Part shown: positions 1 to 64,000 of the stretch, piece by piece
Numbering within the stretch: the stretch's first letter is position 1
Layout of the letters: the number at the start of each line of letters is the position of its first letter
IMG/VR virus record: IMGVR_UViG_3300046000_008568
Span: 30,501-94,500 of that record
Origin: a virus
Lineage: Duplodnaviria; Heunggongvirae; Uroviricota; Caudoviricetes
Length of the DNA stretch: 64,000 bases
Reading direction: 5' to 3' (one strand)
Program-made: the position numbers and the translations under genes
Notes under the pieces: model-generated
Database searches by the model: none
The model's input: only the letters and a program-made list of their open reading frames with translations
What the model was told of the DNA's origin: nothing

Positions 1-3000
1 GGTTCTTTATTTGGTATTGATTGTACTTCAATCCTACCAGCGCCACCGGCAAATTGTGTTTCGTGTAATACAATTGCAATGCCTCCAACTGGAACAGGTA
101 CTATAACTAATGGAAATTTAACAGTTAGTACAACATATAGTGGCCCGGAATTAGTTCTTGGTCCGGCTAATGGTTCTCCTTTTGCTACTTGTACAAATGT
201 ATCTCTTCCATTACCCTTTGTAATTTTAGGAGCAACTCCTGGGGCTTTTATTTATACCTTAAACTTTAACCAACCTGTTAATAATATAAAATTTTTAATA
301 TCGGGAGCCGGAACAACTTACAATCCAACAGCACTTGAAACTTTTACATTTAATACAAGCGGAGGAACCCCTACACTCTCTACTTGTGGACCATCATGTG
401 GTACTACAATAAACAATAATGTCATAACATTAGAATATGTTTCACCTAACGGGGGTGGTGCTTTAACTCAAGTAAATGCAACTAATCCTTATACTCAAAT
501 AATAATAACAGGAAACGGTGGAGCAGATGGCTCCGGGTTTAGTTTATGTTTAGACACAGCAACACCATTACCATCACCATCTCCTTCTGCAACACCATCA
601 ATAACAGTATCACCAAGTAAAACACCATCAGTAACTGCTACACCTAGTATCTCTATTAGTGCTACACCAAGCGTAACACCATCGATAACTGTTACTCCTA
701 GTATAACAATTAGTCCGTCTCGTACGCCAAGTGTAACGCCGTCACCTTCTTTACCGTCGGATGTATGTCCTTTAATTTATACTACTGCTCTTCAATCATA
801 TAATGGAACTAGTTTAACTAATGGTTATTATACTAAAAATTATACTTGGAACCCTAATACTAATGTTCAACAAGAAATAATATTATCTAATGATGTTGTA
901 GGTAATGACATTGCCTCTACTGAAACTAAATTATGGAAAAGCTGGGGAGTATTTAATCCTATTGCTCAAACCTATAGCTATAATATCAATGAATGGAACC
1001 TTTCTGGAAACCCTCCATACACAGCAACTTTTAATAGAACACTTCTATACCCTTCAGGATACACTGCTAGTCCAGGACTAACAGCAAAAGATAATAATAC
1101 ACTTGTAGATGTTGCTTCTACTATTGTAAATGGGCAAACAGTATGGAAAGTTTATGAATTAAATATTCCTACCGCTCCGGCAACACAATTAACAACAACG
1201 TTTAAATTTAACTTAAATAGCAATTTTCAAGGTCAAGGAGATCTAATGTTAACCTCAGATGCAAATGGTAATCCTGATAAACTTTTATTAGCATGTGCTG
1301 TATCTAACCCAACCCCAGGTACTACAAATAGCATAATTGCTCTTCAACAATACGATTATAATACTGGAGCTTTTGAATATGAAATTACATTAATACCCCC
1401 AACAACCTCACCAACAGCCGGTCTTATAGCTGGTATTGCTCAATTTAATAATATAATATATGTTTTCTTTAAGGATGGTTATCCTAATTTACCTGCTTTA
1501 ACTGGGTGGGTTTATTCAATAAATCCAAATCCACCATATAACTGGACTTTAGTAAATAATATATTAGATTCGGGTGGATCAAATTCATTATTATCATGTT
1601 CTAAAGGTAAATTATTAGGGCCTAATGCTAGTGGGTGTGATACTATGTTGTATAGAACTCAAACCAAGGGATATGGTTCATATAACTTTACAACTAATAC
1701 ATCCGCAGTACTTAGTGTAACAGCAAACCCATACCCTGCTAATGATAATACAAATAATCTCCCTACAGTTATTGCTAATACAAGCAATAAAATGTGGGTA
1801 TATGCTACTGGAGCTGCTACTTCTGAAGTTAATTTAAGAGAAAGTAATATAGTATTATCTCCATTTTCTTCTACCTTTAATAGAAATATAGCTTTACCAA
1901 CTGGTCTTAAACCAAATAATGGATTATTTGCTCTAAATAATTCTACTTTAGTAGGTTCATACAAAATAACTAGTCCGGACAGTAGTGGAAATTTATATTC
2001 TCAACCTATAGTTGAAATAAATATACCGGCTGATGGCACCTCAAATCCTATAGCTACTTTTGTTACTAAATGTTTTTTACCAATACAAACAGAACCTGTT
2101 GGTGGGTTGGTAGTAACTAATGGTGTTAATCCAAAACTTATCATTTTAGTTAGAGATACAAATACTCCTACTATCATTATCCTCCTTCAGTACAATTATA
2201 CTACGGGGGATTTAGAGTTATATAAATCATTATCACCAACTATTACAACTCCTAGTGGATTAGTTGAATTAAATGGAAATATATACATTATCGGGTACAA
2301 CATGTATAAAATAGATACTGCTACACCGTATGCTCTAACGTTAGTCCAAAACCCAGGACTAGCCTTAATTAATGCTTCTCAACTATCCAATTGTATTAAT
2401 ACTAACTTTATAATACCTAATAATTGCGATACTTGTACCCCAGCGTTACTCCCTAAATTTAGTCCTGTTACGTATGGTGGAGTTACATTAACCCCATCAT
2501 TTACTGGGATTACTCCTAATTCAATGCCATATAGTGATATAGGATGTTCCGGGACTAACACAGTACTTAATGCTTCAAATACAGTCTGGTTAGGTTGGTA
2601 TCCTGGTGATTTTACTTATACTCTAACATTTAGCCAACCCGTTAATGACATAGTATTATTACTAACCGGTATGGGGGATAGTCCTATAGCTACTGGAGGT
2701 CATTATGAATCTTTTGCTTTTAATACTAATGGTGGGATTCCTTCTCTTACAGCATGTAAGGGATGTTTTGATAATATTAATGCAAATACGGTAACTGGAT
2801 CTGTTTTTGGGCTCAATAGTTTAAACCAAAATATTACAGGAGGTGGATTTCTTAAAGTACATGCAAGCAGTTTGTATACTACTTTAACTATTTCGGGTCC
2901 TGGTGGAATACAAGGTACAGTTTTTGGTATATGTGCCGCTTCTGTATTACCAGCACCAGCTGTTAGCCCATCACCAAGTCCAACACCATCTCCATCACCT

Positions 3001-4473
3001 CCATGTACACCATGTGCTTTACCTAATGTAATAATAGGAACACAAACATGGACAGCATGTAATTTAGATGTTACTACTTATAGAAATGGTGATGTCATAC
3101 CACAAGTTACAGATCCAACAGCTTGGAATACTCTAACTACAGGAGCTTGGTGTTACTACGACAACAACCCAACTAATGGTTGTACATATAATAAACTATA
3201 CAACTGGTATGCTGTAAATGATCCTCGTGGATTAGCTCCTGTCGGTTATCATGTACCAACAGAGGCTGAAATTGAAACATTGCGCCAGTATTTGGGGGGT
3301 ACAAATGTAGCCGGAGGTAAATTAAAACGAACAGGAACTACACTTTGGAATAGTCCTAATACAGGAGCAACAAATGAAACAGGTTGGACAGGACTACCAG
3401 GAGGAGGAAGAGAAAATGCCCAATTTGGGGGTATAAAATCATTTGGGCCTTTCTGGACTTCTACAGCTATCTCAACCCCTGGATATACTAATCTAGCAAT
3501 ATATGCTGATTTATATTATAATAATTCATTACTTGACCTTAAAGGATTCTCTAAAACTAGTGGATATTCCGTACGTTTAATTAAAGATATTAGTTCATTA
3601 GGATGTGTTTATTATAGCACAGGTGGTGCTTCTACATACAATTATAATATTACTACTAATACCTCAACACCAATTACGTTACCCGGAGATAATACAAGTA
3701 ATATGGTTGAAGCTCACACAACAACTAAATATTGGAAAGGAAACCAAACTAATTATATTAACGAATGGAATGTATCAAACAATCCAACAACATTAACATT
3801 TAACAGAACCATATCAATTTCTGGATATTCAGGACCCCAGTTTAATTATTTACAAGCAATAGATAATACTAATTTGCTTACTACGCTTGTTAATTATAGT
3901 TCAACATATAATCCTGCGGGACCATTTGTTAATCCTTTAGTTAAATTAAATATAACAAATAATACTGTTACGGCTACTCAAATGACAACTATGTTTAACA
4001 TATATGCTCCTTCGGGATTGGATGCCCTTATGTTAACAGCCACTAATAAAGTAATAACAGTTGGAAGACGAGCAACCTCATCAACCCAATACGTCTACTA
4101 CTTATCCCAATACTCATACCCAGATGGGGCTTTAGAATTAGATATTGATTTATCATCAACAATTCCTGCCGGGAATAGTACGTATTCCTTTAAATTATTC
4201 GAATCAAATGGAAATTTATATGTAGCTGTTAGTTCAACATACCCAAATGAAATTATATACAATATTAACTTAAACAGCCCTTATACATTTACACCGGTTC
4301 GGACTACTACTAACCCCAATCAATGGTTTGCATCATATAATTCATCAATTAATTGCAATACAGTTAACTTAAATGTAAATCCAAACCCATCACCATCGCC
4401 AACACCAACACCATCTCCATCAGCACCATCAACTGCTTTTAGAACAATATACAAATATTTAGATATTCAATAA
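1..4473 (+). CDS. Large modular virion appendage protein (5'-truncated by window edge): repeated beta-rich domains, P/S/T linkers and a FISUMP (Fib_succ_major)-like domain
   Basis: Frame is open from base 1 (GSLFGIDC...) so the ATG at 79 is internal; internal domain repeats; IGTQTWTACNLDV...GAWCYYDN...LYNWYAV...GYHVPT matches the FISUMP pattern. Confidence 0.75.
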   Translation, partial: GSLFGIDCTSILPAPPANCVSCNTIAMPPTGTGTITNGNLTVSTTYSGPELVLGPANGSPFATCTNVSLPLPFVILGATPGAFIYTLNFNQPVNNIKFLISGAGTTYNPTALETFTFNTSGGTPTLSTCGPSCGTTINNNVITLEYVSPNGGGALTQVNATNPYTQIIITGNGGADGSGFSLCLDTATPLPSPSPSATPSITVSPSKTPSVTATPSISISATPSVTPSITVTPSITISPSRTPSVTPSPSLPSDVCPLIYTTALQSYNGTSLTNGYYTKNYTWNPNTNVQQEIILSNDVVGNDIASTETKLWKSWGVFNPIAQTYSYNINEWNLSGNPPYTATFNRTLLYPSGYTASPGLTAKDNNTLVDVASTIVNGQTVWKVYELNIPTAPATQLTTTFKFNLNSNFQGQGDLMLTSDANGNPDKLLLACAVSNPTPGTTNSIIALQQYDYNTGAFEYEITLIPPTTSPTAGLIAGIAQFNNIIYVFFKDGYPNLPALTGWVYSINPNPPYNWTLVNNILDSGGSNSLLSCSKGKLLGPNASGCDTMLYRTQTKGYGSYNFTTNTSAVLSVTANPYPANDNTNNLPTVIANTSNKMWVYATGAATSEVNLRESNIVLSPFSSTFNRNIALPTGLKPNNGLFALNNSTLVGSYKITSPDSSGNLYSQPIVEINIPADGTSNPIATFVTKCFLPIQTEPVGGLVVTNGVNPKLIILVRDTNTPTIIILLQYNYTTGDLELYKSLSPTITTPSGLVELNGNIYIIGYNMYKIDTATPYALTLVQNPGLALINASQLSNCINTNFIIPNNCDTCTPALLPKFSPVTYGGVTLTPSFTGITPNSMPYSDIGCSGTNTVLNASNTVWLGWYPGDFTYTLTFSQPVNDIVLLLTGMGDSPIATGGHYESFAFNTNGGIPSLTACKGCFDNINANTVTGSVFGLNSLNQNITGGGFLKVHASSLYTTLTISGPGGIQGTVFGICAASVLPAPAVSPSPSPTPSPSPPCTPCALPNVIIGTQTWTACNLDVTTYRNGDVIPQVTDPTAWNTLTTGAWCYYDNNPTNGCTYNKLYNWYAVNDPRGLAPVGYHVPTEAEIETLRQYLGGTNVAGGKLKRTGTTLWNSPNTGATNETGWTGLPGGGRENAQFGGIKSFGPFWTSTAISTPGYTNLAIYADLYYNNSLLDLKGFSKTSGYSVRLIKDISSLGCVYYSTGGASTYNYNITTNTSTPITLPGDNTSNMVEAHTTTKYWKGNQTNYINEWNVSNNPTTLTFNRTISISGYSGPQFNYLQAIDNTNLLTTLVNYSSTYNPAGPFVNPLVKLNITNNTVTATQMTTMFNIYAPSGLDALMLTATNKVITVGRRATSSTQYVYYLSQYSYPDGALELDIDLSSTIPAGNSTYSFKLFESNGNLYVAVSSTYPNEIIYNINLNSPYTFTPVRTTTNPNQWFASYNSSINCNTVNLNVNPNPSPSPTPTPSPSAPSTAFRTIYKYLDIQ

Positions 4474-5794: not shown

Positions 5795-7504
5795 ATGATA
5801 AATGTTACTTTTGTATATAATGGTACTATTAATGGGTATCCTTCTTGGATAGGATATGATGGAACAACTCTATTAACTATTCTTTGGACTGGGACTTATT
5901 GGGTAATGTATGGGTGGCCTTACGATGGAGAACCTAGAAATTATAACAATACCCTAAACCCAACAACGGGGTGGGCTTTATATGATAATACAACATTAAC
6001 AGCAACATTTAATGTAGTGTTAGGGGCCTGTCCTATACCAACACCAACACCAACACCAACTGGTGTAACCGGATGCACTACTTGGAATTTAACAGCACCT
6101 ACAGATCAACCATACGATATTTCATGGGTTGAATATTATGATTGTAGTTTAATTTTACAAACAAGAATAATTTTATATGGAGAAGATCCGATAGATTTCT
6201 GCGTAGACAACACACTTGGGATACTTAATAGTGTTATAAATAATGGGTCTGAGCTAACCAATACATTAGCACCATGCGGGTTAGTACCAACACCATCTCC
6301 AACTGTAACACCAGGTATAACTATAACTCCTACACCATCTATAACACCTTCTCAAATATGTAGTGCTCCGGTATTAAATAATGTTACTTTAGTTTCACGT
6401 CATTTAAGTGAATATACATTTGGTTTATTTTTTACTTCTTTACCTAATTGTAATGATGTTATTTATGAATATTCTTGCGACGGAATTAGTTGGACCTCAT
6501 GCGGTTATGATGAATGCGCTGATGGGTTTGGATGCATATCACCTGTTCAAGTAACTATAGCTGATGTGTATGGTTGTGTTATTTGTAGTGGGAATTGGTA
6601 TTTTAGAATTAAACAATGCTGTCCAAATAACTTACAAAGTAACTATTCAAATACAATAACATTTGTACCTGTATCAACATCACCATCTATAACACCTACA
6701 GTTACAAGAACTCCTAGCAGAACACCATCTGTTACGCCAACTATATCGATCACACCAACTAGAACTATTACTCCAACAACAACCCAAACCCCTACTCCAT
6801 CCGTTACTCCTGGTTTATGTCGATTTTTAGATTCACTTAGTTGTAATGTAGAAAGAGGTAATTATGTTAGAATTCAATACACAAATTGTGCTGGGGCCCT
6901 AAAGATATTTAATGTTTATTTACCTACAGGTATAAATGTTGTTGATGTTAGTTCTTTAAATATTTGTATGAAGGTTGGAACTCCTTTAACTATAATAACT
7001 GGTGCTGCTCTTAGTATACAACCAATATTTGGAGATAGTTGTACTGTAGTTGCTTCACCATCTCCAACTCCAACACCCACTGTAACACCATCTAAAACAC
7101 CATCAATAACACCATCAATAACACCAACACCTACTAGTCCATTAATACCTGTTAATTCTGTAGAGTGGTTTGGTGATGAATATGTTGCTTATAGCACAGG
7201 TGGTGGTGGTGGTGGTGAATATACAGTTGTATTAAATGGAACTGTTGAAATAATAGGAGATCCTGTTACTTTTAAAGCTTATGGATTTTGGTCGTTTTTA
7301 GGACCTAGTGACGGTTCTGTACTTACTAGTGTTTCTATAGGTGCACAAGGTAGATATGCTGAAGCAATCTTTCCAAATATACTTTCTGAATCTCCTCCAC
7401 CCGACCTAATACTTCCAGCAAATACATATGTTTGGCAAGTAATAGTTAGATTCTTTGATGATGCAACTGAAGCTGGAGAAGGTGGTATATTATGGACGCA
7501 ATAA
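5795..7504 (+). CDS. Cys-rich modular structural protein with P/T/S linkers and a putative FN3-like domain
   Basis: 569-aa ORF; several TPSITP tracts; WYFRIKQCC..SNYSN resembles an FN3 C-terminus. Confidence 0.55.
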   Translation: MINVTFVYNGTINGYPSWIGYDGTTLLTILWTGTYWVMYGWPYDGEPRNYNNTLNPTTGWALYDNTTLTATFNVVLGACPIPTPTPTPTGVTGCTTWNLTAPTDQPYDISWVEYYDCSLILQTRIILYGEDPIDFCVDNTLGILNSVINNGSELTNTLAPCGLVPTPSPTVTPGITITPTPSITPSQICSAPVLNNVTLVSRHLSEYTFGLFFTSLPNCNDVIYEYSCDGISWTSCGYDECADGFGCISPVQVTIADVYGCVICSGNWYFRIKQCCPNNLQSNYSNTITFVPVSTSPSITPTVTRTPSRTPSVTPTISITPTRTITPTTTQTPTPSVTPGLCRFLDSLSCNVERGNYVRIQYTNCAGALKIFNVYLPTGINVVDVSSLNICMKVGTPLTIITGAALSIQPIFGDSCTVVASPSPTPTPTVTPSKTPSITPSITPTPTSPLIPVNSVEWFGDEYVAYSTGGGGGGEYTVVLNGTVEIIGDPVTFKAYGFWSFLGPSDGSVLTSVSIGAQGRYAEAIFPNILSESPPPDLILPANTYVWQVIVRFFDDATEAGEGGILWTQ

Positions 7505-13636: not shown

Positions 13637-14137
13637 ATGGCTTTATATGGTAGTTCTCGAGATATATCTTTTTTCCATGTTATCAATGCTGAGTTGTTAC
13701 ACAACATTATTGAACAAAACGTGGGATACTATCAAATATCCTTAGATGAAACAACAACTAACGTTTATGGTGAAGCTGAAGGTGGAACCAAAATGTATTT
13801 TCCTCCTGTATTAATAGTTTGTTTGATTGATAGAGGAGATTATGAAGGAGATTATGATAATCAAATAGGACCTGATTTTACTAGAAATTTTAAATTTAGA
13901 TTTTTACGTAAAGACTTAGTACTACAAAACATTATACCTCAAATCGGAGATATTGTATTATGGAATAATGATTATTACGAAATAAATTTAGTTAATGAAA
14001 ATCAAGATATAGTTGGTAAAGTACCTGAATATAATTACAATGGTGCTTATTTAGATAATTTTGGAGCAAGTTTTTCCATCATTGTTAATGCTCATTACGT
14101 ATCACCAGAATCATTAGGATTAACCCAATCTAGATAA
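13637..14137 (+). CDS. Neck/head-closure protein (T4 gp14-like)
   Basis: NVYGEA, PQIGDIVLWNNDYYEI patterns; synteny. Confidence 0.55.
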   Translation: MALYGSSRDISFFHVINAELLHNIIEQNVGYYQISLDETTTNVYGEAEGGTKMYFPPVLIVCLIDRGDYEGDYDNQIGPDFTRNFKFRFLRKDLVLQNIIPQIGDIVLWNNDYYEINLVNENQDIVGKVPEYNYNGAYLDNFGASFSIIVNAHYVSPESLGLTQSR

Positions 14138-15915
14138 TGTCAAGACAACTCCCAATATTACCAAATACACCAGCTAGACGAGTAAATGAGCAGATTGAAC
14201 CTTATATTTCACCTGCTGATGTGCCTACTTTACCTGAAGATAGAATAACTCGTGCAAACCAAATATCTGTTGATATTGAAAATGACATCACACCACTTTC
14301 AATTGGTTTACAAGATATTGATGAGGCTGTATTTTTTTACTTTAACAATATTATTAAACCTGTAGTAGTACAAAATGGAAACCAAATATCTGTACCTGTT
14401 GCTTATGCGTCCGCTGAAAGATGGGTATCAGTCCAAAAAGATGGATATTTTAGAGATAAAAATGGGAAAGCAATGTACCCATATATTATTGTAAGAAGAA
14501 CAGGGTTTGAAAAAAATAGAACATTAGCAAATAAATTAGATGGTAATAATGTAAATAATTTTGCTGTTGCTCAAGGACGATATAATTCAAAAAATCAATA
14601 TACTAATTTTGATATTTTAAATAATTACTTACCATCCGAAAAATTCTACCTAACCCCTGTACCAGATTACATCAATGTAACGTATGATTGTGTTATTATT
14701 ACTAATTTTATACAGGAAAATAATAAAATAGTTGAAGCTATTGAATTTGCTTCAGATTCATATTGGGGTAATAAAAATCGTTATCAATTTAGAACATATA
14801 TTGATAGATTTGATTCTACTAATGAATATGGTATTAGTGATCAACGTGTAGCTAAAACAAATTTAAGTATAACATTGTACGGGTATATTATACCTGAAAC
14901 AATCAATAGGGATTTAGCCACTAATGGGCAACGCCAATTTTTTTCTAAATCAGTTGTTTCTATTACTGGAGAAACCGTAGTAAATGCTAATGGACCTGTA
15001 GGAGCATCGGCTAATCCGGGAACTGGTAGACCACTACCAAGCCCAACCCCTAGCCCATCAATTACCCCAAGCATATCAGCTACACCGGGCCTAACACCAA
15101 GTATATCAGCCACACCAAGTGTAACACCATCTATATCAGTTACACCAAGTATAACACCAAGCATAACAATTACACCAAGCATAAGCATAACACCATCTAT
15201 TACACCATCTATTACACCATCATCAGCACCAGTTTATGGAGGTAGTATAGATTTTGGTAATGAATATGGTAGATATGCTATTACTGATGTAGCTAGTACA
15301 GATTATTCATTAGGATATAATGATTTTACAATTGAGTGGTTTCAAAAATTAAGCACATTCAGTTCAGCTAACGGAGCAATAATTCCCTTCTCTATTTATA
15401 ATTCAAATACAGATTATTTACACTTTAGTATGGCTGATTATAACTCTAATATATTATTTAATTTAACATTAGTTGTAAGTTACTCTGGAATTGGTTATTC
15501 ATTTGTTACTTCTGTACCAACAACAACATTACTAGATTGGACTCATATAGCTATATCTAGAACATCAACAACATTTAATATATATGTTAATGGTGTTTTA
15601 TCAAATCCTGGAAATAGTATAGGAAGTGTAGATTTCGCTCCACTATTATCTAAATTATCTCTTGGAAATATCGGAGAATATTTCCCATTAAGCTATAGAT
15701 TCCCAGGAAAAATAACTAACTTTAATTTTGTTAATGGGACCGCATTATATACTGCTGACTTTACTCCACCAACATCACCAATAACACCATCAACTAATAC
15801 TAAATTATTATTATTAGCTACGGACAATGCTGGGTTATTGACGGATTCAAGTGGACTAAATATAACTGTAAATAATATTAGTGGATTAACTTGGAGTTCT
15901 GATAATCCTTTCTAA
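14137..15915 (+). CDS. Tail terminator/sheath stabiliser (gp15-like) fused via a PST linker to a LamG/ConA-like domain
   Basis: VPVAYASAERW, PDYINVTYD, N..VE pattern; TPSI repeats ~15030-15225; DFTIEWF..WTHIAISR..IYVNG. Confidence 0.65.
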   Translation: MSRQLPILPNTPARRVNEQIEPYISPADVPTLPEDRITRANQISVDIENDITPLSIGLQDIDEAVFFYFNNIIKPVVVQNGNQISVPVAYASAERWVSVQKDGYFRDKNGKAMYPYIIVRRTGFEKNRTLANKLDGNNVNNFAVAQGRYNSKNQYTNFDILNNYLPSEKFYLTPVPDYINVTYDCVIITNFIQENNKIVEAIEFASDSYWGNKNRYQFRTYIDRFDSTNEYGISDQRVAKTNLSITLYGYIIPETINRDLATNGQRQFFSKSVVSITGETVVNANGPVGASANPGTGRPLPSPTPSPSITPSISATPGLTPSISATPSVTPSISVTPSITPSITITPSISITPSITPSITPSSAPVYGGSIDFGNEYGRYAITDVASTDYSLGYNDFTIEWFQKLSTFSSANGAIIPFSIYNSNTDYLHFSMADYNSNILFNLTLVVSYSGIGYSFVTSVPTTTLLDWTHIAISRTSTTFNIYVNGVLSNPGNSIGSVDFAPLLSKLSLGNIGEYFPLSYRFPGKITNFNFVNGTALYTADFTPPTSPITPSTNTKLLLLATDNAGLLTDSSGLNITVNNISGLTWSSDNPF

Positions 15916-45760: not shown

Positions 45761-45794
45761 AGGTTGGATTTCGTCCAACCTTTTATTATCTTTA
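45761..45794 (+). terminator. Terminator hairpin overlapping a promoter (GTTG-N20-TATCTTTA)
   Basis: AGGTTGGA-TTTCG-TCCAACCT-TTT; -33 box inside the stem, -7 box at 45787-94. Confidence 0.65.
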
Positions 45795-45807
45795 TAAAAA
45801 ATAGTTT

Positions 45808-47858: not shown

Positions 47859-47865
47859 TATAGTT

Positions 47866-48538: not shown

Positions 48539-48895
48539 ATGACAATTTTAACATCAATTATTTTAGTAGCAGCTATTGTACTAGTAGCAGCATTTATTGC
48601 ATACCAAATGCAAAAAGGAACAAAACCTATGTCCGAATTTAAAGCAGACTTTGACAACAATGCCGAAGTACAAGAATTAGCAGAATTAGCTAAAGAACTT
48701 TACAACAAAGACTTACGTCCTATTGTAGCTAAAAAAGCACCTAAAACTAAAAAACCAGAATTTCCTATCGATCAACCAGTTAAGGAGGAAAAAGTAACCG
48801 AAATATCTCAACCAGTTGTAACAGTAAATGTTGAGGTAGCAAAACCGAAGAAAAAAAGAAAATATTACCCTAAAAAGAAAAAGACTCAAGAGTAA
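48539..48895 (+). CDS. Membrane-anchored protein with Lys-rich C-terminus
   Basis: N-terminal TM, KPKKKRKYYPKKK tail. Confidence 0.55.
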   Translation: MTILTSIILVAAIVLVAAFIAYQMQKGTKPMSEFKADFDNNAEVQELAELAKELYNKDLRPIVAKKAPKTKKPEFPIDQPVKEEKVTEISQPVVTVNVEVAKPKKKRKYYPKKKKTQE

Positions 48896-48896: not shown

Positions 48897-48904
48897 ATAT
48901 TTAT
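48897..48904 (+). promoter_or_regulatory. ATATTTAT putative late-promoter motif heading the GT cluster
   Basis: No upstream TTG box at the 20-nt spacing. Confidence 0.4.
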
Positions 48905-48920: not shown

Positions 48921-50201
48921 ATGCCAAAACAAAAGGTTTCAAATGAAACAATATTTGTACAAATCGCTTCGTACAGAGACCCAGAATTATTATCTACTAT
49001 TAAAGATTGTTTAGCTAATGCTAAATATCCTGAAAATCTACGTATTTGTATTGCTTGGCAACACGCTGAAGAAGATGAATGGGATAATTTAGATGAGTAT
49101 AAAAACGATCCACGTTTTAAAATAATGGATATCCATTACAAAGACGCTAAAGGAGTATGCTGGGCTAGAAACAGATTACAAAGACATTATAACGGAGAAA
49201 AATATACATTACATTTAGATTCTCATCACCGGTTCTCTAAGAATTGGGATGAGACTCTAATTAATATGTTAAAAGGTCTTCAAAAGAAAGGTCATAAAAA
49301 ACCATTACTTACCGCCTATTTACCTGGATACTTCCCAAATAATGATCCTGAAGGGCGTAATAATGAAGTATGGTTTACTAATTGTGATAGATATATGCCT
49401 GAAGGTCCTATATTTATTGCTCCTGGTCACGTACCAAATTGGGAAACTATTAAAGAACCAATCCCCGCTAGATTTTATTCAGGACATTTTGGATTTACCT
49501 TAGGTGAATTTACTTATGATGTACCTCACGATCCTGAACTTTACTTCCATGGTGAAGAAACATCTATATCAGCTCGAGCATTTACTCACGGATATGATTT
49601 GTTTCACCCTCACATTCCTGTTATTTGGCATGAATATACTAGAGAAGGAAAGAAACGTCATTGGGACGATCATCAATTTTCCCCATTAGATAAAGCTTCA
49701 TTTAAAAAATATAGAGCATTATTTGGAATAGATGGTGAAAGCAGAGAAGACATGGATTTTGTCGGGCTTGACTTAGGAAAAGAACGTACATTGGCTGAAT
49801 TTGAACGTTATATTGGAGTAGATTTTAAAGGTAAACGAATTCAAAAACATACATCCGATCAAAAAATGCTTCCTATACCGGAAATGACAGAAGAAGAATG
49901 GGAATCAAATTTTGTAAACCGTTTCAAATACTGTATCGATCTTTATAAACCATCAGTACCTGATGAAGATTATGATTGTTGGGTAATAGCATTTAAAGAT
50001 AAAGACGGTGTTGAAATAGCTAGGATGGATGCCGATAAAGATGAAATTGCTAGAATTAAACAATCTAATCCTACTGGTCAATTTTATAATATATGGAGAG
50101 AATTTGACTGTTTAGAACACCCTAAAAGCTGGTTACTATGGCCACACAGTCCATCTAAAGAATGGGATCATGAAATTATAAAAAACGAAATACCTTACTA
50201 A
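48921..50201 (+). CDS. GT60-like (Skp1-hydroxyproline/polypeptide GlcNAc-transferase-like) glycosyltransferase 1
   Basis: IFVQIASYRDPEL, AKGVCWAR, LDSHHRF, YFHGEE, ARAFTHGYDLFHP. Confidence 0.75.
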   Translation: MPKQKVSNETIFVQIASYRDPELLSTIKDCLANAKYPENLRICIAWQHAEEDEWDNLDEYKNDPRFKIMDIHYKDAKGVCWARNRLQRHYNGEKYTLHLDSHHRFSKNWDETLINMLKGLQKKGHKKPLLTAYLPGYFPNNDPEGRNNEVWFTNCDRYMPEGPIFIAPGHVPNWETIKEPIPARFYSGHFGFTLGEFTYDVPHDPELYFHGEETSISARAFTHGYDLFHPHIPVIWHEYTREGKKRHWDDHQFSPLDKASFKKYRALFGIDGESREDMDFVGLDLGKERTLAEFERYIGVDFKGKRIQKHTSDQKMLPIPEMTEEEWESNFVNRFKYCIDLYKPSVPDEDYDCWVIAFKDKDGVEIARMDADKDEIARIKQSNPTGQFYNIWREFDCLEHPKSWLLWPHSPSKEWDHEIIKNEIPY

Positions 50202-51487
50202 TGAAAAAACCAAATAGTAGAAAAATATTCATCCACTTACCAGCATACAGAGAACCAGAATTAATTCCTACAATTAAATCTGCTTTAGAAAATGCTAAGT
50301 ATCCAAAACGTTTAGTATTTGGTATTTGTCGACAATTTAATCCTGAAGATGGATTTGATAATATTGATGAGTATAGAAACGATAAACGTTTTAAAATTAT
50401 AGATATACCTTACGAGCAAGCAAAGGGATTACCTTATGCTCGTTATCAAATTAACACATTGTTAACTGATGAAGAATATATATGTCAATTAGACTCACAT
50501 CATAGATTTGCACAAGATTGGGATGTTACCTTAATTGAAATGCACGACCAATTAAAAGCTAAGGGACATAAAAAACCTATATTAGCTGCTTATTTACCTT
50601 ATTATAATCCGTTTAATGATCCTGCTGAACGTACTATGGAACCATGGCAACAAACATTTGCTTGTTTTTATCCTCATGGAACAATTTTCATTAGACCGGG
50701 ACTATTACATGGTTGGCAGGACATGAAAGAACCACCCCCATCAAGATTTTTATCCGGGCATTTTTGCTTTGCTGATGGACATTGGGCTAAAACAGTTTTA
50801 CATGATGCTGATATCTTCTTTAGTGGTGAGGAATTAAATTTAACTGTACGTTCTTATACTCACGGTTATGATATGTTTCATCCTCATAAATTAGTAGTTT
50901 GGCATGCTACTATGAGAGAAGAACGTAGTGGTAAATTAGTATGGGACGATCAAAGTAAACGAGGTGAAGATTGGTGGTCTCAACAAGATAGTGCTAGAGC
51001 TAAAATTAGACAATTACTTCAAACCGAAGAGAATGGTTTTGATTTAACTGGGTATGATTTAGGAACAGAACGTACTTTAAAAGACTATGAAAAATATGCC
51101 GGTATTCACTTTAAAAAACGCTCAGTACAAAAATATACTTTAGATAATAATTATCCTCCTAACCCATATTATTTAGATGATCAAGAATGGGAAAATTCAT
51201 TTATGTTTTCATTCTATCATTTAATCCAATTTAGTAAAGCTACATTTAAACATGATGATTACGATTTCTGGGTTTGTGCTTTTGACGATGAAAATGGAAA
51301 AGAAGTATGGAGAGAAGATTATCAAGAACATCAAATTAAAGGAATACTTAATTCCCCTGGAGATTGGTATAATGAAGAAAAATTCTTCTTAACCGAAACT
51401 ATTCCTACTCGTTGGGTGATTTGGGCACATAGTAAATCTCAAGGATGGGTAGAGCGAATTGAAGAACAAATTAATTATAAAAAATAA
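50201..51487 (+). CDS. GT60-like glycosyltransferase 2 (tandem paralog)
   Basis: IFIHLPAYREPEL, AKGLPYAR, LDSHHRF, FFSGEE, RSYTHGYDMFHP. Confidence 0.75.
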   Translation: MKKPNSRKIFIHLPAYREPELIPTIKSALENAKYPKRLVFGICRQFNPEDGFDNIDEYRNDKRFKIIDIPYEQAKGLPYARYQINTLLTDEEYICQLDSHHRFAQDWDVTLIEMHDQLKAKGHKKPILAAYLPYYNPFNDPAERTMEPWQQTFACFYPHGTIFIRPGLLHGWQDMKEPPPSRFLSGHFCFADGHWAKTVLHDADIFFSGEELNLTVRSYTHGYDMFHPHKLVVWHATMREERSGKLVWDDQSKRGEDWWSQQDSARAKIRQLLQTEENGFDLTGYDLGTERTLKDYEKYAGIHFKKRSVQKYTLDNNYPPNPYYLDDQEWENSFMFSFYHLIQFSKATFKHDDYDFWVCAFDDENGKEVWREDYQEHQIKGILNSPGDWYNEEKFFLTETIPTRWVIWAHSKSQGWVERIEEQINYKK

Positions 51488-52492
51488 ATGAAATTTATAG
51501 TTACAATAGCGGGCCCAACTATGATGTATCGATTAGATATTATAAAAAAATCTAGCCCGGATATTATTAAAGATTATGTAATTATTTTTACGGATAGGTA
51601 TTCTTATAATTTGTATAAGGAAAAAGGTTATCATAATGATTTTAATTTTGTTATAATAGATGATATTAGAAATAATTTTCCTATTAGTTTAGAATACGAA
51701 CAAATATTAGAATTACCTACGGAAGAAGAATACTTAAAAAATTTATATACTTTTTATAATGGTAGTAATAAAAAACTTTTTCCGTATGATATACATCGTT
51801 TCATATTACCTTATTTAGCAGAACAAAATATTTTAAATTTTGCTATTGTTGATTCTGATATGATTTTAAACAATGATAAAGATTTTTTAACCGAATATTT
51901 TAAATCGCTTCCACAATCTTACCTCTACATGCATATGCATGATTATGATCTAGAATTACAACCTAGATTATCCTTATTTCTAAAAAATCAACACCTCTAC
52001 CCAGAAATAAATTTCAACGTAGACCAAATGAATAAAGCTGATGGTTATGTTAGAGGATTTAATTTTAATTCTAAAGAAGATTTATTATTATTTTTTAATA
52101 TATGGAATAAAACAATTGAAGAATATTTTACTTCATCTGACCACGATCATAAAATTGGTGGGGGGAATCTTATTTTAGATTTAGCATTTATATGTCCTTA
52201 TGTAATGCAATTTTTTAAAAGTAAAGGATATACATTTGAAGATTGTCATATAAGCAGAGACATTCGTGGCCAAAGATGCTATCAACATTGCACCCGCCCA
52301 GAAGATACTTTTTACTTTGGAGCTAGATTTGGATGGGGTCATTATAATTTTAATTATTCTGATGTTAGTAATATTTCTAATTTTATAAAAAATAATAAAA
52401 ATCAATTAAGAGAATATTATAATAATCGTCTATCTGTAACCGGTATAACTGATACTCATGTTTATACCACAATTAATGAAAATATACAATGA
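51488..52492 (+). CDS. Putative GT-A glycosyltransferase
   Basis: AIVDSDM DxD motif; cluster context. Confidence 0.45.
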   Translation: MKFIVTIAGPTMMYRLDIIKKSSPDIIKDYVIIFTDRYSYNLYKEKGYHNDFNFVIIDDIRNNFPISLEYEQILELPTEEEYLKNLYTFYNGSNKKLFPYDIHRFILPYLAEQNILNFAIVDSDMILNNDKDFLTEYFKSLPQSYLYMHMHDYDLELQPRLSLFLKNQHLYPEINFNVDQMNKADGYVRGFNFNSKEDLLLFFNIWNKTIEEYFTSSDHDHKIGGGNLILDLAFICPYVMQFFKSKGYTFEDCHISRDIRGQRCYQHCTRPEDTFYFGARFGWGHYNFNYSDVSNISNFIKNNKNQLREYYNNRLSVTGITDTHVYTTINENIQ

Positions 52493-53295
52493 TCATAAAT
52501 AGAAGTAATAATATATATGATGAATTACCTAAATTTAATGTAATTCATGGATGTGGGGTTAATAATTTTAGAAATGATGAATACATTGTACCTTTTGTAT
52601 CTAAAGATATAAAAGTGGTAATGATATCTAATTTTAGGCATCAAAGTTCTTTTCCTGAACAATATGAGAATTCTGATAGATTAGATTTTACTTTTATAGA
52701 ATTACCAACTTTTAAATGTTGGATTGATAAAATAGAACCTTTACTTAATTTAGCCAAATCTATAGATAATAAATACATAATGTATTTAGATACTAGTGAT
52801 ACTGTATTATTAACTAATCTTTTAGATCCTAAAAGTTTATTAGATAAATATAAGTGTAAAGTTTTATTTAATGCTGAAGATGATTATTCTAATCCTGGTC
52901 ACCCGTGTGATCCTAAACTTTGGTTAAATGATTATCCTACTTATTATAAAGATAAGGATGCGGTAATAATAAAAAATAAATCAAATTTAGCTAGTAAGAT
53001 GAATACTAATGGGTTTACTAGATCTTTAAATGCTGGGGTATTTTTAGGAGAAAGAGAATTTTTAATAGAGGTACTTCAAAAAATACTAGATTTAATGAAC
53101 GATGATCCCTCAAAAGGATACCCATACGGGGAATCAGACGATCAAGTCCTCTGGCAACATATGATGTCTCTTTATGAAAATAATGAAATAGAAATAGATT
53201 ATTATAATTTATTTTTTCTTTGGACTCATTCTAGAAAATTTGATTTCCCTCATGACCATTGGGAGCATTTTAACTATTTCAATAACATAAATTAA
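52489..53295 (+). CDS. PLOD/LH3 glycosyltransferase-domain-like protein
   Basis: YLDTSDTV, VLFNAE, LNAGVFLG, SDDQ in the order of the PLOD GT domain. Confidence 0.6.
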   Translation: MIINRSNNIYDELPKFNVIHGCGVNNFRNDEYIVPFVSKDIKVVMISNFRHQSSFPEQYENSDRLDFTFIELPTFKCWIDKIEPLLNLAKSIDNKYIMYLDTSDTVLLTNLLDPKSLLDKYKCKVLFNAEDDYSNPGHPCDPKLWLNDYPTYYKDKDAVIIKNKSNLASKMNTNGFTRSLNAGVFLGEREFLIEVLQKILDLMNDDPSKGYPYGESDDQVLWQHMMSLYENNEIEIDYYNLFFLWTHSRKFDFPHDHWEHFNYFNNIN

Positions 53296-53318
53296 TATTA
53301 ATAAACTAAAAACAAAAT

Positions 53319-54128
53319 ATGAACCAAGTTGTAATAACCCTTACCACAATCCCATCTAGACTAACCCCAGAAAATTTTGAAGAGGGAATTAAAAGTAATA
53401 TTGAATCTTTATTAAATCAAGACTATGAAGGAGAATATGAAATACATTTTAATGTACCTTCTATGTTAAAACAGACTAGTACTGAATATATCATACCTGA
53501 ATGGATAAGAGAAATAGCTAATACTAATCCTAAATTTAAAATATTTGATAACTTAGAAGATCTAGGCCCTGTTACTAAAATAGTACACACTTTAAAAAGA
53601 GTAACAGACCCTGAAGCAATCCTAATAGTATGTGATGATGATTTAGTATACCACCCAGGAATGGTAGCGGAACAAGTAAAAAATCAAAACAAACATCATA
53701 ATACCGCAGTAGGATATGATGGAATAGGAGCACTTGACCCTACAATATTTAATGATATACGATATCATTATGTAGTATCGGTACCTCAAGATATAGAGGT
53801 AAACATATTGCAACATTATAAAACGGTATCATATAGACGTAGATTTTTTGGAGATGACTTTTGGGCAGATTTTGCTTCCCATTCATGGAATGATGATATT
53901 TCTGTAGCCGCTCATATGGGTAAGCAAGGTATCAAAAAACTAGTTGCTTGTTATGAACATGAAGAACCACTACTTACTATTGAAGAATGGAGAGCAAAAG
54001 GTGGTGTTACTACATTTCCTGTATTAAGACACACATCTCACGAACGAGAAGAAGGATGTACTTTATATAGAGATAATCAAGTAAACGATAACCACATGTA
54101 TTTTCATAGAGCAGGATACATCAGATAA
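53319..54128 (+). CDS. GT2-like glycosyltransferase
   Basis: VITLTTIPSRL, DLGPVTK, IVCDDD, NDDI. Confidence 0.7.
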   Translation: MNQVVITLTTIPSRLTPENFEEGIKSNIESLLNQDYEGEYEIHFNVPSMLKQTSTEYIIPEWIREIANTNPKFKIFDNLEDLGPVTKIVHTLKRVTDPEAILIVCDDDLVYHPGMVAEQVKNQNKHHNTAVGYDGIGALDPTIFNDIRYHYVVSVPQDIEVNILQHYKTVSYRRRFFGDDFWADFASHSWNDDISVAAHMGKQGIKKLVACYEHEEPLLTIEEWRAKGGVTTFPVLRHTSHEREEGCTLYRDNQVNDNHMYFHRAGYIR

Positions 54129-54144
54129 TACATAAAACTAAAAC

Positions 54145-55974
54145 ATGGGTATAGTTATAAAAACCGAAGATACTGCTTTTAATTTAGAAAACATTAAATC
54201 TCAATTAAGTACTTTAAGTCCTGATGAAAAAACTAAATTATTAGAATACTTATCTGCTACTCCACAACTAGATATAACAAATAATGATATAACATTAGTT
54301 ACTGGTTTATGGAATATAAGTCGAGTAGGTAGAGATTTTGATCATTACATTGAACATTTTAAAAACTTCTTAGATATTCCTATGAAGATGTTTATTTATG
54401 TTCCCCAAGAATTAGAATACTTAGTTTGGGAAAAACGTTCTAAAGAAAATACACATGTTAGAACATTTGAATTAAATAACATTAAAGATAATTTCTATGC
54501 TCCATTTTGGGATAAAACCCAAGAAATTAGAAATAATCCTGAATGGTTAAATCAAACTGGAGAACATGGATGGTTACCTAATAGCCCTCAAGCATCAAAT
54601 GAATGGTATAATCCAATTGTACAATCAAAAATGTTTATGCTTCACGACGCTAAAGTTATGAATGTATTTGATACAGATTATTTCCTTTGGTTAGATGCAG
54701 GTATCAGCAATACAGTATATGATAAACACTTTAGTTCAGATAAATGTTTAGACAAAATTACTCCATATCTAAGTACATTTTTATTTTTAAGTTATCCTTA
54801 TGAAGCAAAAGATGAAATTCATGGGTTTGATTTTAAAGCAATAAACAAATATGCTAGAGAAGAAGTAAAATATGTTTGTAGAGGCGGATTATTTGGAGGA
54901 CATAAAGACTTTCTCTCTCAAGCTAATGGAACTTATTATTCATTACTTCAAGATACATTAAATTCTGGATACATGGGTACTGAAGAGAGCATTTTTAGTA
55001 TAATGTCTCATTTAGAACCTCACATTTATAGACGTTACGCTTTAGATGGAAACGGATTAATTATAAAATTTACTCAAGCATTATTAGATGATCAAGTAGA
55101 ATTAGAAAATAATAGTACTCGTGCTCATGTTTTACCTAAAGGAATTTATACTCCACATAAAACTAAAACATCCCTCTACATGCTTACCTTTAACTTCCCA
55201 GAACAAATTAAGCATACCTTAGCTACTTGGGAAGAAAATTCATCTGATTGGCTTTCTAAACCTAGAAAAATATTATTAGACAATTCAACTGACTATGCAG
55301 CACAGGAAGATAATAAATTAGTTGCTCATCAATATGGGTTTGAATATATTTCATTAGAAGGAAACATAGGAATAAATGGTGGAAGATTATTTGCCGCTAA
55401 ACACTTTGATGAGTCTGATAGTGATTATTATTTCTTCTTTGAAGACGATATGGGGCTAAACCCAGCAAGTGATACTGGTTCATGTAGAAATGGATTTAAA
55501 AATCATATTCCTAATCTATATAAGCACGTTCACGAAATAATGGCTAGAGAAGAATTTGATTTCTTAAAACTATCATTTACAGAAGTATACATGGATAACA
55601 ATATCCAAGTATCATGGTATAATGTCCCTCAAGACTTCAGAAGTTTCCTATGGCCCGACTATGATCAACTCCCAGTTTCTGGTTTAGATCCGTATGCTCC
55701 AAGAACCAAATTTGATAAGGTAGAAGTCCACAATGAGGTATCGTATATTTCAGGAGAAATTTATTATTGCAACTGGCCTATGATTGTAAGTAGAGAGGGT
55801 AATAAGAAAATGTTTTTAGATGTAGAATGGGCTCACCCCTATGAACAAACTTGGATGAGTTATATGTTTCAAGAAACAGTTAAAGGAAATATTAAACCAG
55901 CAATATTATTAGCTTCCCCTGTATGGCATAATAGAATAGTCTATTATAAACCAGAAGAAAGACGTGAGAATTAA
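54145..55974 (+). CDS. Two-domain glycosyltransferase: HtrL/YibB-like plus GT-A
   Basis: ITLVTGLWNI, FLWLDAG, GGLFGG, GTEES; second domain FFFEDD. Confidence 0.7.
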   Translation: MGIVIKTEDTAFNLENIKSQLSTLSPDEKTKLLEYLSATPQLDITNNDITLVTGLWNISRVGRDFDHYIEHFKNFLDIPMKMFIYVPQELEYLVWEKRSKENTHVRTFELNNIKDNFYAPFWDKTQEIRNNPEWLNQTGEHGWLPNSPQASNEWYNPIVQSKMFMLHDAKVMNVFDTDYFLWLDAGISNTVYDKHFSSDKCLDKITPYLSTFLFLSYPYEAKDEIHGFDFKAINKYAREEVKYVCRGGLFGGHKDFLSQANGTYYSLLQDTLNSGYMGTEESIFSIMSHLEPHIYRRYALDGNGLIIKFTQALLDDQVELENNSTRAHVLPKGIYTPHKTKTSLYMLTFNFPEQIKHTLATWEENSSDWLSKPRKILLDNSTDYAAQEDNKLVAHQYGFEYISLEGNIGINGGRLFAAKHFDESDSDYYFFFEDDMGLNPASDTGSCRNGFKNHIPNLYKHVHEIMAREEFDFLKLSFTEVYMDNNIQVSWYNVPQDFRSFLWPDYDQLPVSGLDPYAPRTKFDKVEVHNEVSYISGEIYYCNWPMIVSREGNKKMFLDVEWAHPYEQTWMSYMFQETVKGNIKPAILLASPVWHNRIVYYKPEERREN

Positions 55975-63943: not shown

Positions 63944-63975
63944 ATTCACATATATTTATATCCAAATATATAATT

Positions 63976-64000
63976 ATGGCAAGTAAAAATGACAAACTTA
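63976..64000 (+). CDS. Start of an ORF truncated by the window end
   Basis: ATG at 63976 after an ATATTTAT motif at 63952. Confidence 0.4.

Follow-up and report, generated by a model that had tools for sequence, protein, structure and literature searches.

Genes at the locus

The window, the whole 64,000-nucleotide stretch of DNA analysed here, belongs to a 166-kb Flavobacterium-type phage genome. Positions 48921-55974 consist of six back-to-back + strand ORFs, which a previous sequence-only reading had described as consecutive glycosyltransferase-like genes; this is confirmed, the interval being packed with ORFs for glycosyltransferases (GTs) or GT-like proteins. Long PST tracts had also been claimed for three other genes of the window, and they are real in all three. 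The features are:

1..4473, + strand: fibre-like protein, C-terminal 1490 of 2338 aa; many PST linkers, Fib_succ_major domain; proposed substrate
5795..7504, + strand: 569-aa Cys-rich modular protein; PST linkers; proposed substrate
14137..15915, + strand: 592-aa protein; conserved core of ~290 aa, PST linker, C-terminal LamG/ConA-like lectin domain; proposed substrate
48897..48904, + strand: ATATTTAT promoter-like box, 16 nt before the GT60a ATG; putative late promoter element
48921..50201, + strand: GT60a (ORF1), 426 aa; soluble GT60/PF11397 glycosyltransferase, proposed initiating polypeptide O-glycosyltransferase
50201..51487, + strand: GT60b (ORF2), 428 aa; GT60a paralogue (42% identity), putative second initiating or follow-up transferase
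51488..52492, + strand: ORF3, 334 aa; GT-A-like (GT8/GT77-like), putative glycan-extending transferase; swappable cassette member
51489..54134, + strand: swappable glycan-tailoring cassette (ORF3-ORF5), flanked by GT60b and O6
52489..53295, + strand: ORF4, 268 aa; PLOD-GT-like, putative glycan-extending transferase; swappable cassette member
53319..54128, + strand: ORF5, 269 aa; GT2-family glycosyltransferase; swappable cassette member
54145..55974, + strand: O6 (ORF6), 609 aa; bifunctional, two GT-A domains; conserved GT60 partner
63952..64000, + strand: ATATTTAT box and start of a second glycan island, which runs on past the window end

Membrane segments are absent from all six cluster proteins, indicating that they are soluble. 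The first two match PF11397 (GlcNAc/GT60; E 7e-67 for GT60a, 5e-56 for GT60b) as well as phrog_24687, and their tandem arrangement is found in this phage's own clade and at loci L022, L027, L032, L036 and L039. The predicted model of GT60a (pLDDT 88), together with an alignment in which D100-S101-H102 is invariant, gives it a GT-A fold with a DxH site; GT60b retains the invariant DSH motif (alignment A3). Polypeptide GalNAc-transferases account for all of the top 47 PDB fold hits of GT60a (E down to 1e-10, TM about 0.5), so that by both HMM and fold the lead enzymes group with those that initiate O-glycosylation of polypeptides. At the sequence level no PDB chain was matched, even with a profile.

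At the other end of the cluster, the N-terminus of O6 matches HtrL_YibB (PF09612, E 2e-10), and its model (pLDDT 80.5) shows two GT-A domains whose best PDB matches are the Mimivirus collagen glucosyltransferase R699 (E 6e-11), LARGE1, LH3, COLGALT1, K4CP and PmHS2; the first four of these are enzymes of protein glycans. E433-D434-D435 is invariant in O6, which accompanies GT60 in 34 of 44 loci. Between these conserved partners, ORF5 matches GT2 (PF00535, E 5e-7, 30.1 bits against a cut-off of 23.3) and at residues 102-109 has a hydrophobic strand leading into DDD. Pfam and PHROG searches gave no match for ORF3 or ORF4, and their GT-like status comes from Atlas matches that are leads rather than proofs: ORF3 lies near GT8/GT77 folds (TM 0.56 to glucoside xylosyltransferase, GT8) and has nucleotide-diphospho-sugar transferases as its feature matches, and ORF4 scores 0.97-0.98 to clusters in which 26-64% of members carry GT_PLOD (PF25342).

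GT60 and GT27 enzymes target Thr/Ser in Pro-rich repeats. The animal polypeptide GalNAc-transferases (CAZy GT27) start mucin-type O-glycosylation and act on TP-rich tandem repeats; they have the DxH motif in common with the phage enzymes, which differ from them in lacking a membrane anchor and in that a ricin-type lectin domain is not established. The protist GT60 alpha-GlcNAc-transferases include the Dictyostelium Golgi pp-alphaGlcNAcT2 (PTVT-type spacers), the T. cruzi mucin OGNT and the cytoplasmic Gnt1 (Skp1), and their acceptors, Thr/Ser (or Hyp) in Pro/Thr-rich repeats, are very like the phage linkers. With these the phage enzymes share PF11397, the GT-A fold and the DxH site, and they are soluble as Gnt1 is; unlike them, they are encoded by a bacteriophage and have at the C-terminus an additional conserved domain, beta-rich and about 120 aa long. 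Because no prolyl hydroxylase was found in the phage genome, a Skp1-type Hyp linkage is unlikely.

PST-linker proteins and a shared promoter-like box

The genome encodes six PST proteins, three of them outside the window. The fibre-like protein contains a Fib_succ_major match (PF09603, E 8e-37). In the 592-aa protein, the PST tract (about residues 297-364) is followed by the LamG/ConA-like domain (PF13385, E 8e-10), and the core has a faint T4-gp15_tss Pfam match (E 0.007, 16 bits) that falls below the 25-bit cut-off.

The raw number of ATATTTAT copies in the window is not elevated (19, against 20.5 in shuffles). Over the whole genome, the + strand carries 48 copies and the - strand 9. Of the 48, 34 are found within 0-75 nt upstream of an ORF start, where 4.3 are expected (P 3e-25); the box upstream of the cluster is a real promoter-like element, biased in strand and position. 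Two structural modules contain 28 of these 34 copies, and the other six precede the lysis cassette, the GT cluster (48897), the second glycan island (63952) and three other genes, which bears out the earlier claim that the motif is found mainly ahead of structural and lysis genes. The same box precedes the PST genes or their operons, lying 53 nt upstream of the fibre-like gene and 45 nt upstream of the Cys-rich protein gene, and the copy before GT60a is kept in L005-L009 and L013. This motif suggests that the GT cluster is expressed late.

Co-occurrence and co-loss of GT60 and PST linkers

Across phages, the GT cluster and PST-linker proteins occur together and disappear together. Among PolB relatives, the PST pattern is present in 8/9 GT60+ records and 0/15 GT60- records (Fisher 1.2e-5), and pooled with more distant records in 28/34 versus 0/16 (P 1.5e-8), although the compared records are mutually related, so that these values overstate independence; the independent contrasts that can be identified are two within the clade and three or four among deep lineages. 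Relatives with PST linkers and no GTs, the case that would speak against the link, were not seen among the 16. The distant GT60+ records carry the pattern in 18 of 23 cases. The five that do not, one of which is an 85%-complete, 256-kb contig with GT60 and no O6, count against our reading.

Physical proximity follows the same trend. A PST-tract ORF directly adjoins the module in 14 of 26 non-redundant distant loci (6.4 expected, P 1e-4), and PST tracts occur in 11% of flank ORFs, versus 3% of ORFs over the whole genome of this phage. When records were chosen only for a (Thr-Pro)6 tract, 10 of 68 contained PF11397, compared with 4 of 50,697 cultured phage records. The remaining 58, five of them 98-100% complete, lack PF11397 and count against a two-way link; since such unrelated phages exist, the link goes from GT60 to linkers and not the reverse.

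A sister genome, G081, serves as a natural knock-out. It is 97% complete, nested inside this phage's clade and syntenic at 60-95% amino acid identity, and it lacks the whole GT cluster, leaving a MazG-PolB gap of only about 550 bp. For three of the six PST proteins, including the fibre-like and Cys-rich proteins of the window, no homologue was found in G081. Two further orthologues stop at the linker (292 vs 592 aa, the shorter ending at the linker start of the 14137..15915 protein, and 301 vs 836 aa), and the last has only its N-terminal 269 aa in common and is fused in G081 to the next gene. Two cultured phages agree with the pattern. The Xanthomonas jumbo phage XacN1 contains GT60 (ORF334, 40% identity), O6 (ORF330, 37%) and 21 PST-pattern hits across several genes, and Schiff reagent stains two or more of its virion bands (Yoshikawa et al. 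2018, PMC5852040); in Flavobacterium phage immuto, GT60 and PST tracts are both absent.

The virion proteins might instead be glycosylated at other sites, such as the capsid or tail-tube termini, with PST linkers merely co-travelling in exchangeable appendage modules or with the lectin-like modules binding the glycan. In mycobacteriophages, phage-encoded transferases glycosylate the phage's virion proteins while still in the cytoplasm (Freeman et al. 2023, summarised in PMC12619734), and the glycans in that summary are on capsid and tail-tube C-termini. The Schiff-positive bands of XacN1 were not assigned to named proteins. The PST-linked distal domains are, moreover, lectin-like (LamG, Fib_succ_major). 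Against this, it is the PT/PST tract itself that recurs beside GT60 across deep lineages while the flanking domains vary, and the loss in G081 falls exactly on linkers and attached parts, with capsid and tail genes retained. The Pro-rich acceptor preference of GT60/GT27 enzymes, with the fold match, points the same way, and we consider glycosylation at other sites unlikely.

Cassette exchange and the acceptor

ORF3-ORF5 occupy a swappable slot. Nucleotide homology to L005 (89-97%) breaks off at 51528 and restarts at 54134, and that to L007 restarts at 53287; ORF5 is retained in L007 and L008 and missing from L005 and L006, and ORF3 is not conserved in 98%-identical relatives. Depending on the locus, the slot is filled by carbamoyl-, methyl- and pyruvyl-transferases, GT2/7/10/25/PLOD and an epimerase. 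The second island (Pfam, genome 94698-107274) encodes two GT4 proteins, a GT2, a nucleotidyltransferase, DegT-like proteins, a PglD-like acetyltransferase, a GDP-mannose 4,6-dehydratase and a methyltransferase; in G081 its sugar-nucleotide genes are gone and the GT4 pair is retained.

The transferases could instead act on a host or non-protein acceptor, such as LPS, capsule, a host surface protein whose modification blocks superinfection, or a free oligo- or polysaccharide synthesised by two-domain O6. Several of the families have names taken from the cell envelope, namely HtrL/YibB (LPS core region), GT2, GT8 and GT25, and O6 also resembles the capsule polymerases K4CP and PmHS2. However, all six proteins are soluble, and among the matches reported for 60 cassette ORFs there is no flippase, polymerase or phosphoglycosyl-transferase/lipid-carrier initiating family. 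A promoter box common to structural and lysis genes would be late for protecting the host cell, and adjacency, co-occurrence and co-loss with PST linkers would be left unexplained. We give this explanation roughly a one-in-ten chance.

The position of the cluster raises a third alternative, that the transferases shield phage DNA from host nucleases by glycosylating it (on a hydroxylated pyrimidine or 7-deazaguanine), in the manner of T-even phages. The cluster of this clade is located in a replication/nucleotide module, between FolE/MazG genes and PolB and away from the structural genes, which counts against a virion role; its neighbours are 7-deazaguanine genes (QueD, QueC, QueE, FolE), a MazG-like pyrophosphatase and a family-B DNA polymerase. 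Phage GTs making diverse glycans on DNA are documented, including glucosyl-5hmC of T-even phages and arabinosyl-5hoC of RB69 and DLP3 (PMC13326640), and they too are encoded near replication and nucleotide-metabolism genes. Those systems, though, need a thymidylate-synthase homologue (for 5hmC, 5hmU, 5hoC) or a methylase plus dioxygenase, and the genome search found no thymidylate-synthase homologue, ThyX or C5 DNA methylase; a Tet/JBP dioxygenase search also gave no match, but its control was silent in every genome, so this negative carries no weight. Most other lineages have the GT60+O6 module away from Que genes, set among PST and structural genes, and the GT60a fold matches peptide-acting enzymes. 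Flavobacterium phage immuto, in which neither GT60 nor PST tracts were found, has its G fully replaced by fdPreQ1, and none of its nucleosides carries a sugar. As none of the known starter enzymes for hydroxylated bases was detected in the genome, DNA glycosylation is very unlikely.

Proposed mechanism and related systems

The sequence-only reading had proposed O-glycans on mucin-like linkers, and fold, adjacency, co-occurrence and co-loss all support this; we infer that the cluster is most likely a phage-encoded cytoplasmic protein O-glycosylation system acting on the PST linkers of the phage's own virion proteins. These linkers, the proposed substrates, connect modules of lectin-like and Cys-rich type to proteins of the tail, neck, baseplate and fibres. 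The cluster would be co-transcribed with structural genes from the ATATTTAT-type promoter, after which the two soluble GT60 enzymes, with their DxH metal site and ppGalNAc-T-like fold, may add the first sugar (probably HexNAc, by family analogy) to linker Thr/Ser. Extension or tailoring of the glycan would then fall to the replaceable middle cassette (GT8/77-like, PLOD-GT-like and GT2 in this phage), and the conserved O6 might add two more sugars or a repeating pair, with the second island probably supplying an unusual nucleotide sugar. If true, the virion would bear stiff, protease-resistant, strain-variable 'mucin-like' stalks; stiffening, protease protection and masking are all conceivable benefits.

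We found no paper that describes this reading. The nearest cassette is ORF334-ORF330 of XacN1 (PMC5852040), also seen in Xoo-sp13 and the Stenotrophomonas phages CM1 and RAS14, in which GT60 and O6 bracket tailoring genes; XacN1 differs in being a roughly 385-kb proteobacterial phage with one GT60 copy and a carbamoyltransferase in the cassette, and the paper on it draws no link between the enzymes and Pro/Thr linkers (Yoshikawa et al. 2018). Compared with the mycobacteriophage systems, the lead enzyme here is GT60/ppGalNAc-T-like and the proposed sites are internal appendage linkers. Giant viruses likewise use soluble transferases and sugar-nucleotide genes to modify repetitive structural proteins (PBCV-1 capsid; Mimivirus collagen-like fibrils, R699; PMC9546862, PMC12279948). 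They have eukaryotic hosts, Asn or hydroxylysine acceptor chemistry and no described GT60 initiator, yet it is R699 that provides the best fold match of O6.

Genome setting of the glycosyltransferase cluster

We read the six-gene glycosyltransferase (GT) cluster as a set of soluble enzymes that would O-glycosylate the Ser/Thr/Pro-rich (PST) linkers of the phage's own tail and fibre proteins. The record is judged complete at 165,861 bp, of which the window is bases 30501-94500, and the + strand holds almost every gene of the genome. The genes run in the following order (window coordinates unless marked as genome).

1-29,700: tail, neck and fibre genes, including sheath, tube, baseplate hub and tape measure
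From 29,767: replication and nucleotide genes (SSB, UvsX-like recombinase, 5'-3' exonuclease, DnaB-like helicase, ribonucleotide reductase)
38835-48516: 7-deazaguanine genes, in the order QueD, QueC, lysis cassette, QueE, FolE
47463-47858: phosphoribosyltransferase-like ORF
47785-48516: MazG-like ORF
48921-55974, + strand: six GT genes (GT60a, GT60b, ORF3, ORF4, ORF5, O6), preceded at 48897 by the promoter-like box ATATTTAT
Downstream of the six GT genes: PolB, GroES/GroEL, clamp loader, PD-(D/E)XK nuclease
63952-64000 (genome 94476-107274): second glycan island (L260), following another ATATTTAT box

Among cultured phages the nearest relatives are the Flavobacterium phages vB_FspM_immuto, with only 44% identity in the tail sheath; their records were missed by the PolB search and recovered from the collection by a tail-sheath search. 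No close isolate exists in culture, because the best DNA-level match of the whole cluster among cultured phages is only 4%, to Xoo-sp13. The lysis cassette (TssN-like small membrane protein, GH19 endolysin and holin, 43424-45107) splits the 7-deazaguanine gene set and is served by a separate ATATTTAT box at 43408. The ORF immediately before the GT promoter box (118 aa, 48539-48895) is strongly hydrophobic at its N-terminus (KD19 2.99) and matches no family. It is poorly conserved even among close relatives: in loci L005 and L007 only part of it aligns, at 49-59% identity. The phage-encoded GroES and GroEL (PF00166, PF00118; 59557-61487) are conserved in relatives, and GroES/GroEL are also encoded by the cultured phage XacN1 according to its paper (PMC5852040).

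Counted simply as a word, ATATTTAT is no commoner in the window than chance would make it; only its strand and position bias give the motif meaning. Genome-wide there are 48 copies on the + strand and 9 on the - strand. Of the 48, 34 precede an ORF start by 0-75 nt, where 4.3 would be expected (P 3e-25), and the median distance is 21 nt. The sequence-only reading had the box mostly preceding structural and lysis genes, and its placement bears this out: 28 of the 34 start-proximal copies fall in the two structural modules; of the remaining six, three precede the lysis cassette, the GT cluster and the second glycan island, and the other three precede further genes. A T4-type late promoter carries the consensus octamer TATAAATA at -10 of late genes; the box here, ATATTTAT(A), is a different word. 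By its position and the genes that it precedes, ATATTTAT nonetheless behaves like a late-promoter element, and the putative timing of the GT genes rests on this motif.

A proposed soluble initiating enzyme of mucin type

The six consecutive GT-like genes first picked out by eye hold up as two GT60 (PF11397) paralogues, a GT2 enzyme (ORF5), a protein with an HtrL_YibB match (O6), and two leads from Atlas neighbours (ORF3 and ORF4). GT60a and GT60b score 226.8 and 191.1 bits against PF11397 (cut-off 21; E 7e-67 and 5e-56), and the same genes were recovered by a family search of the whole genome. The initiating family has >7,600 homologues in metagenomes. GT60/PF11397 comprises polypeptide and Skp1 alpha-GlcNAc-transferases, which pass alpha-GlcNAc from UDP-GlcNAc to Thr/Ser or Hyp of a polypeptide; for the phage enzymes such a transfer is putative, and the co-occurrence with PST linkers supports it only indirectly. 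A model of GT60a built with 23 homologues (pLDDT 88) has a GT-A core, and its top 47 Foldseek matches in the PDB are all ppGalNAc-transferases (E 1e-10 to 2e-7, TM about 0.5); polypeptide GalNAc-transferases are the initiators of mucin-type O-glycosylation. The triad D100-S101-H102, invariant in the 23 sequences including both paralogues, corresponds to the DxH metal site of this enzyme class.

The modelled catalytic domain is thus of the ppGalNAc-T (GT27) type, and GT60a would work like a GT27 enzyme. We do not count it as a GT27 member, because GT60a has no PDB match by sequence, either as a single sequence or as a GT60 profile, and because the C-terminal ricin-type lectin domain that is a GT27 trait has no Pfam Ricin counterpart in the GT60 proteins. 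A Skp1-type hydroxyproline route was also considered and dropped, since no P4H-type 2OG oxygenase (PF13640) is present.

PST linkers accompany GT60

The long PST tracts noted earlier in three virion genes (1-4473, 5795-7504 and 14137-15915) are real, and the genome encodes six PST proteins in total. An earlier proposal was to check whether the GT cluster and PST-linker proteins co-occur across phages; adjacency, enrichment, relatives, a sister genome and cultured phages have now all been examined, with supportive results. In distant loci (45-55% GT60 identity), long PT/PST-tract ORFs stop some tens of bases short of GT60 or begin immediately after O6. A PST ORF is directly adjacent in 14 of 26 non-duplicate loci, where 6.4 would be expected from the PST density of each locus (P 1e-4). 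Viral records selected solely for a (Thr-Pro)6 coding run contain PF11397 in 10 of 68 cases, and cultured phage records in only 4 of 50,697.

The PolB relatives of 60 kb or more number 24, and in this set the PST codon pattern occurs in 8/9 GT60-positive and 0/15 GT60-negative records (Fisher 1.2e-5), with 1-23 hits per pattern-bearing record, all on a single strand. A wider GT60-positive set has the pattern in 18/23, and pooling gives 28/34 GT60-positive against 0/16 GT60-negative (P 1.5e-8, a value that overstates independence because the compared records are related to one another). PT tracts without GT60 do exist, including in five complete unrelated phages, and one 85%-complete record of 256 kb has GT60 with neither O6 nor PST tracts. 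In one GT60-less relative (L199, record G078) the reversed control pattern itself scored 18 times on a single strand, a sign of a different repeat with codon periodicity.

One contrast comes from G081, a genome of 161.7 kb (97% complete) that lies inside the window's own clade on the PolB tree and is syntenic with the window genome at 60-95% protein identity. In G081 MazG is followed by PolB with only ~550 bp between them, so that G081 lacks the whole 7-kb cluster. It has no homologue of the 2338-aa, 569-aa or 252-aa PST protein; the neck/tail protein (14137-15915) is 592 aa here and 292 aa in G081, ending where the linker starts, the 836-aa baseplate protein is 301 aa long there, and the N-terminal 269 aa of the 534-aa protein are fused to the next gene. 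Judged by gene content, G081 is in effect a natural knock-out of the GT cluster and the PST linkers. A second contrast, in another clade, sets L202 and L203, which have both traits, beside L217, which has neither (63% complete).

Two further features of G081 were observed. A 1350-aa protein with YadA-head adhesin repeats (7719-11771; PF05658, E 3e-28; phrog_25468) is absent along with the neighbouring PST proteins. The PolB gene of G081 (L212, G081:C1:65260-70547) is interrupted: its longest ORF is 579 aa and the match extends over 3.3 kb rather than 2.6 kb, suggestive of an insertion, for instance an intein or a homing endonuclease.

An alternative is that other parts of the virion carry the glycans and the linkers are mere companions of the GT genes. 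We regard this as quite unlikely: across lineages the common element is the tract itself, and the distal domains differ (LamG, Fib_succ_major, Cys-rich modules).

A conserved core with a variable slot

Searching IMG/VR with GT60a returned 44 loci, and O6 lies beside GT60 in 34 of them; GT60 and O6 therefore form a conserved core. The slot between them, occupied here by ORF3-ORF5 (51489-54134), differs in content even between near-identical genomes. In locus L005 the GT60a, GT60b and O6 proteins are 97-98% identical to those of the window and the flanks of the slot share 89-97% nucleotide identity, but nucleotide homology ends 40 nt into ORF3 (51528) and restarts 11 nt before O6 (54134). Neither ORF3 nor ORF4 has a Pfam or PHROG match; their Atlas neighbours are GT8/GT77-type and PLOD-GT-type proteins, respectively, putative assignments drawn only from such lookalike searches. 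A weak leucine-rich-repeat match of ORF3 in the PDB, with E 6e-5 across 37 residues, was discounted as an effect of composition, and PDB sequence searches with O6, ORF3 and ORF4 returned nothing usable.

A Pfam scan of 60 slot ORFs from related loci found carbamoyltransferases (7), FkbM (5) and CmcI-type (3) methyltransferases, together with GT2, GT7, GT10, GT25, PLOD-GT, epimerase/dehydratase and pyruvyltransferase families. The 25 most frequent of the 27 families matched include no flippase, polymerase, or phosphoglycosyl- or membrane initiating transferase. To judge from these families, the slot holds what a soluble, stepwise line for building and tailoring glycans would look like. It does not resemble a polysaccharide cluster working on a lipid carrier (Wzx/Wzy or ABC): none of the six GT-cluster proteins has a membrane segment, and no carrier-lipid family is among those 25. 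That the GTs act on the host envelope or on free polysaccharide is very unlikely in our view, as this does not fit the soluble enzymes, the lack of carrier-lipid genes among the families matched, the shared promoter box or the coupling to PST tracts.

The 609-aa O6 carries its HtrL_YibB match at the N-terminus and is modelled (pLDDT 80.5) as a tandem of two GT-A domains, that is, two Rossmann-like halves in one chain, as in bifunctional transferases. The best PDB matches of the model are Mimivirus R699 (a collagen Gal-Hyl glucosyltransferase), LARGE1, LH3, COLGALT1, K4CP and PmHS2, all two-domain or protein-glycan enzymes. The C-terminal domain has an invariant E433-D434-D435, and the N-terminal domain has an invariant W182-x-D184-x-G186 in place of a classic DxD. 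O6 might be an alternating polymerase like LARGE1 or the chondroitin and heparosan synthases, laying down long repeating-disaccharide chains on linker Thr/Ser primed by GT60, with swapped cassettes giving glycan serotypes. We consider this unlikely; if true, it would place 'proteoglycan' fibres on a bacterial virus, and cassette-made serotypes would alter adsorption, resistance to proteases or grazers, or recognition by host defences. Some O6 homologues, in L010, L014, L025, L027 and L039, reach 758-1033 aa through fusion to an additional N-terminal domain and would be three-domain enzymes.

DNA as an alternative acceptor

The neighbouring 7-deazaguanine genes raise the alternative that the cluster glycosylates phage DNA. 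In every described pathway the hydroxylated base is made by a thymidylate-synthase homologue, or by a C5 methylase together with Tet/JBP-type enzymes. The complete genome has no thymidylate-synthase homologue (PF00303), ThyX (PF02511) or C5 methylase (PF00145); the Tet/JBP search (PF12851) was also empty, but its control matched in no genome, so that this absence is weak. In most other lineages the GT60-O6 module shows no linkage to Que genes. Immuto, which has no GT60, replaces all G by fdPreQ1, with dA, dC and dT canonical. Taken together, these observations make DNA a highly improbable acceptor. As for the deazaguanine genes themselves, TGT/DpdA gave zero Pfam matches across the whole genome; immuto-type phages use a divergent DpdA3, and a conserved 262-aa ORF at 39549-40337 is a candidate for a DpdA-type role.

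Cultured phages and known systems

Only a few actinobacteriophages are known to have glycosylated particle proteins, and elsewhere among phages the trait is regarded as rare. In the literature we found no description of a GT60-led system aimed at the Pro/Thr linkers of phage virions. The closest paper is the XacN1 study, which noted two GTs and stained bands without connecting them to linkers (PMC5852040). Phage-encoded virion glycosylation as such is already known in mycobacteriophages (PMC12619734); the system proposed here is GT60-led and would act on PST linkers.

XacN1 carries a GT60 (ORF334), a carbamoyltransferase, an O6 (ORF330), and a 3313-aa PT-tract protein adjoining baseplate genes, and it scores 21 hits for the PST pattern and 0 for the control; immuto has neither a PF11397 gene nor the PST pattern. 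The only experimental hint of glycans comes by analogy from XacN1, a carrier of a homologous cassette, in whose virions at least two bands were Schiff-stained as glycoprotein (PMC5852040).

In several deep phage lineages a eukaryote-like initiating enzyme family of mucin type is tied to mucin-like linkers of virion appendages. If these linkers are indeed glycosylated, strain-variable fibres coated with glycans would be a feature of many large phages that are abundant in aquatic and plant-associated settings, with consequences for host range, particle stability, adhesion and the way in which therapeutic phages are recognised by the immune system. PT/PST linkers in phage proteins could then be read as sites of glycosylation, and the enzymes would offer a soluble toolkit for mucin-type O-glycosylation in the bacterial cytoplasm.

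The second glycan island encodes two GT4-type transferases, a nucleotidyltransferase, DegT-like proteins and a PglD-like acetyltransferase, as well as a GT2, a methyltransferase and a GDP-mannose 4,6-dehydratase. G081 and G084, both relatives that lack GT60, retain the GT4 pair of this island but not its sugar-nucleotide genes.
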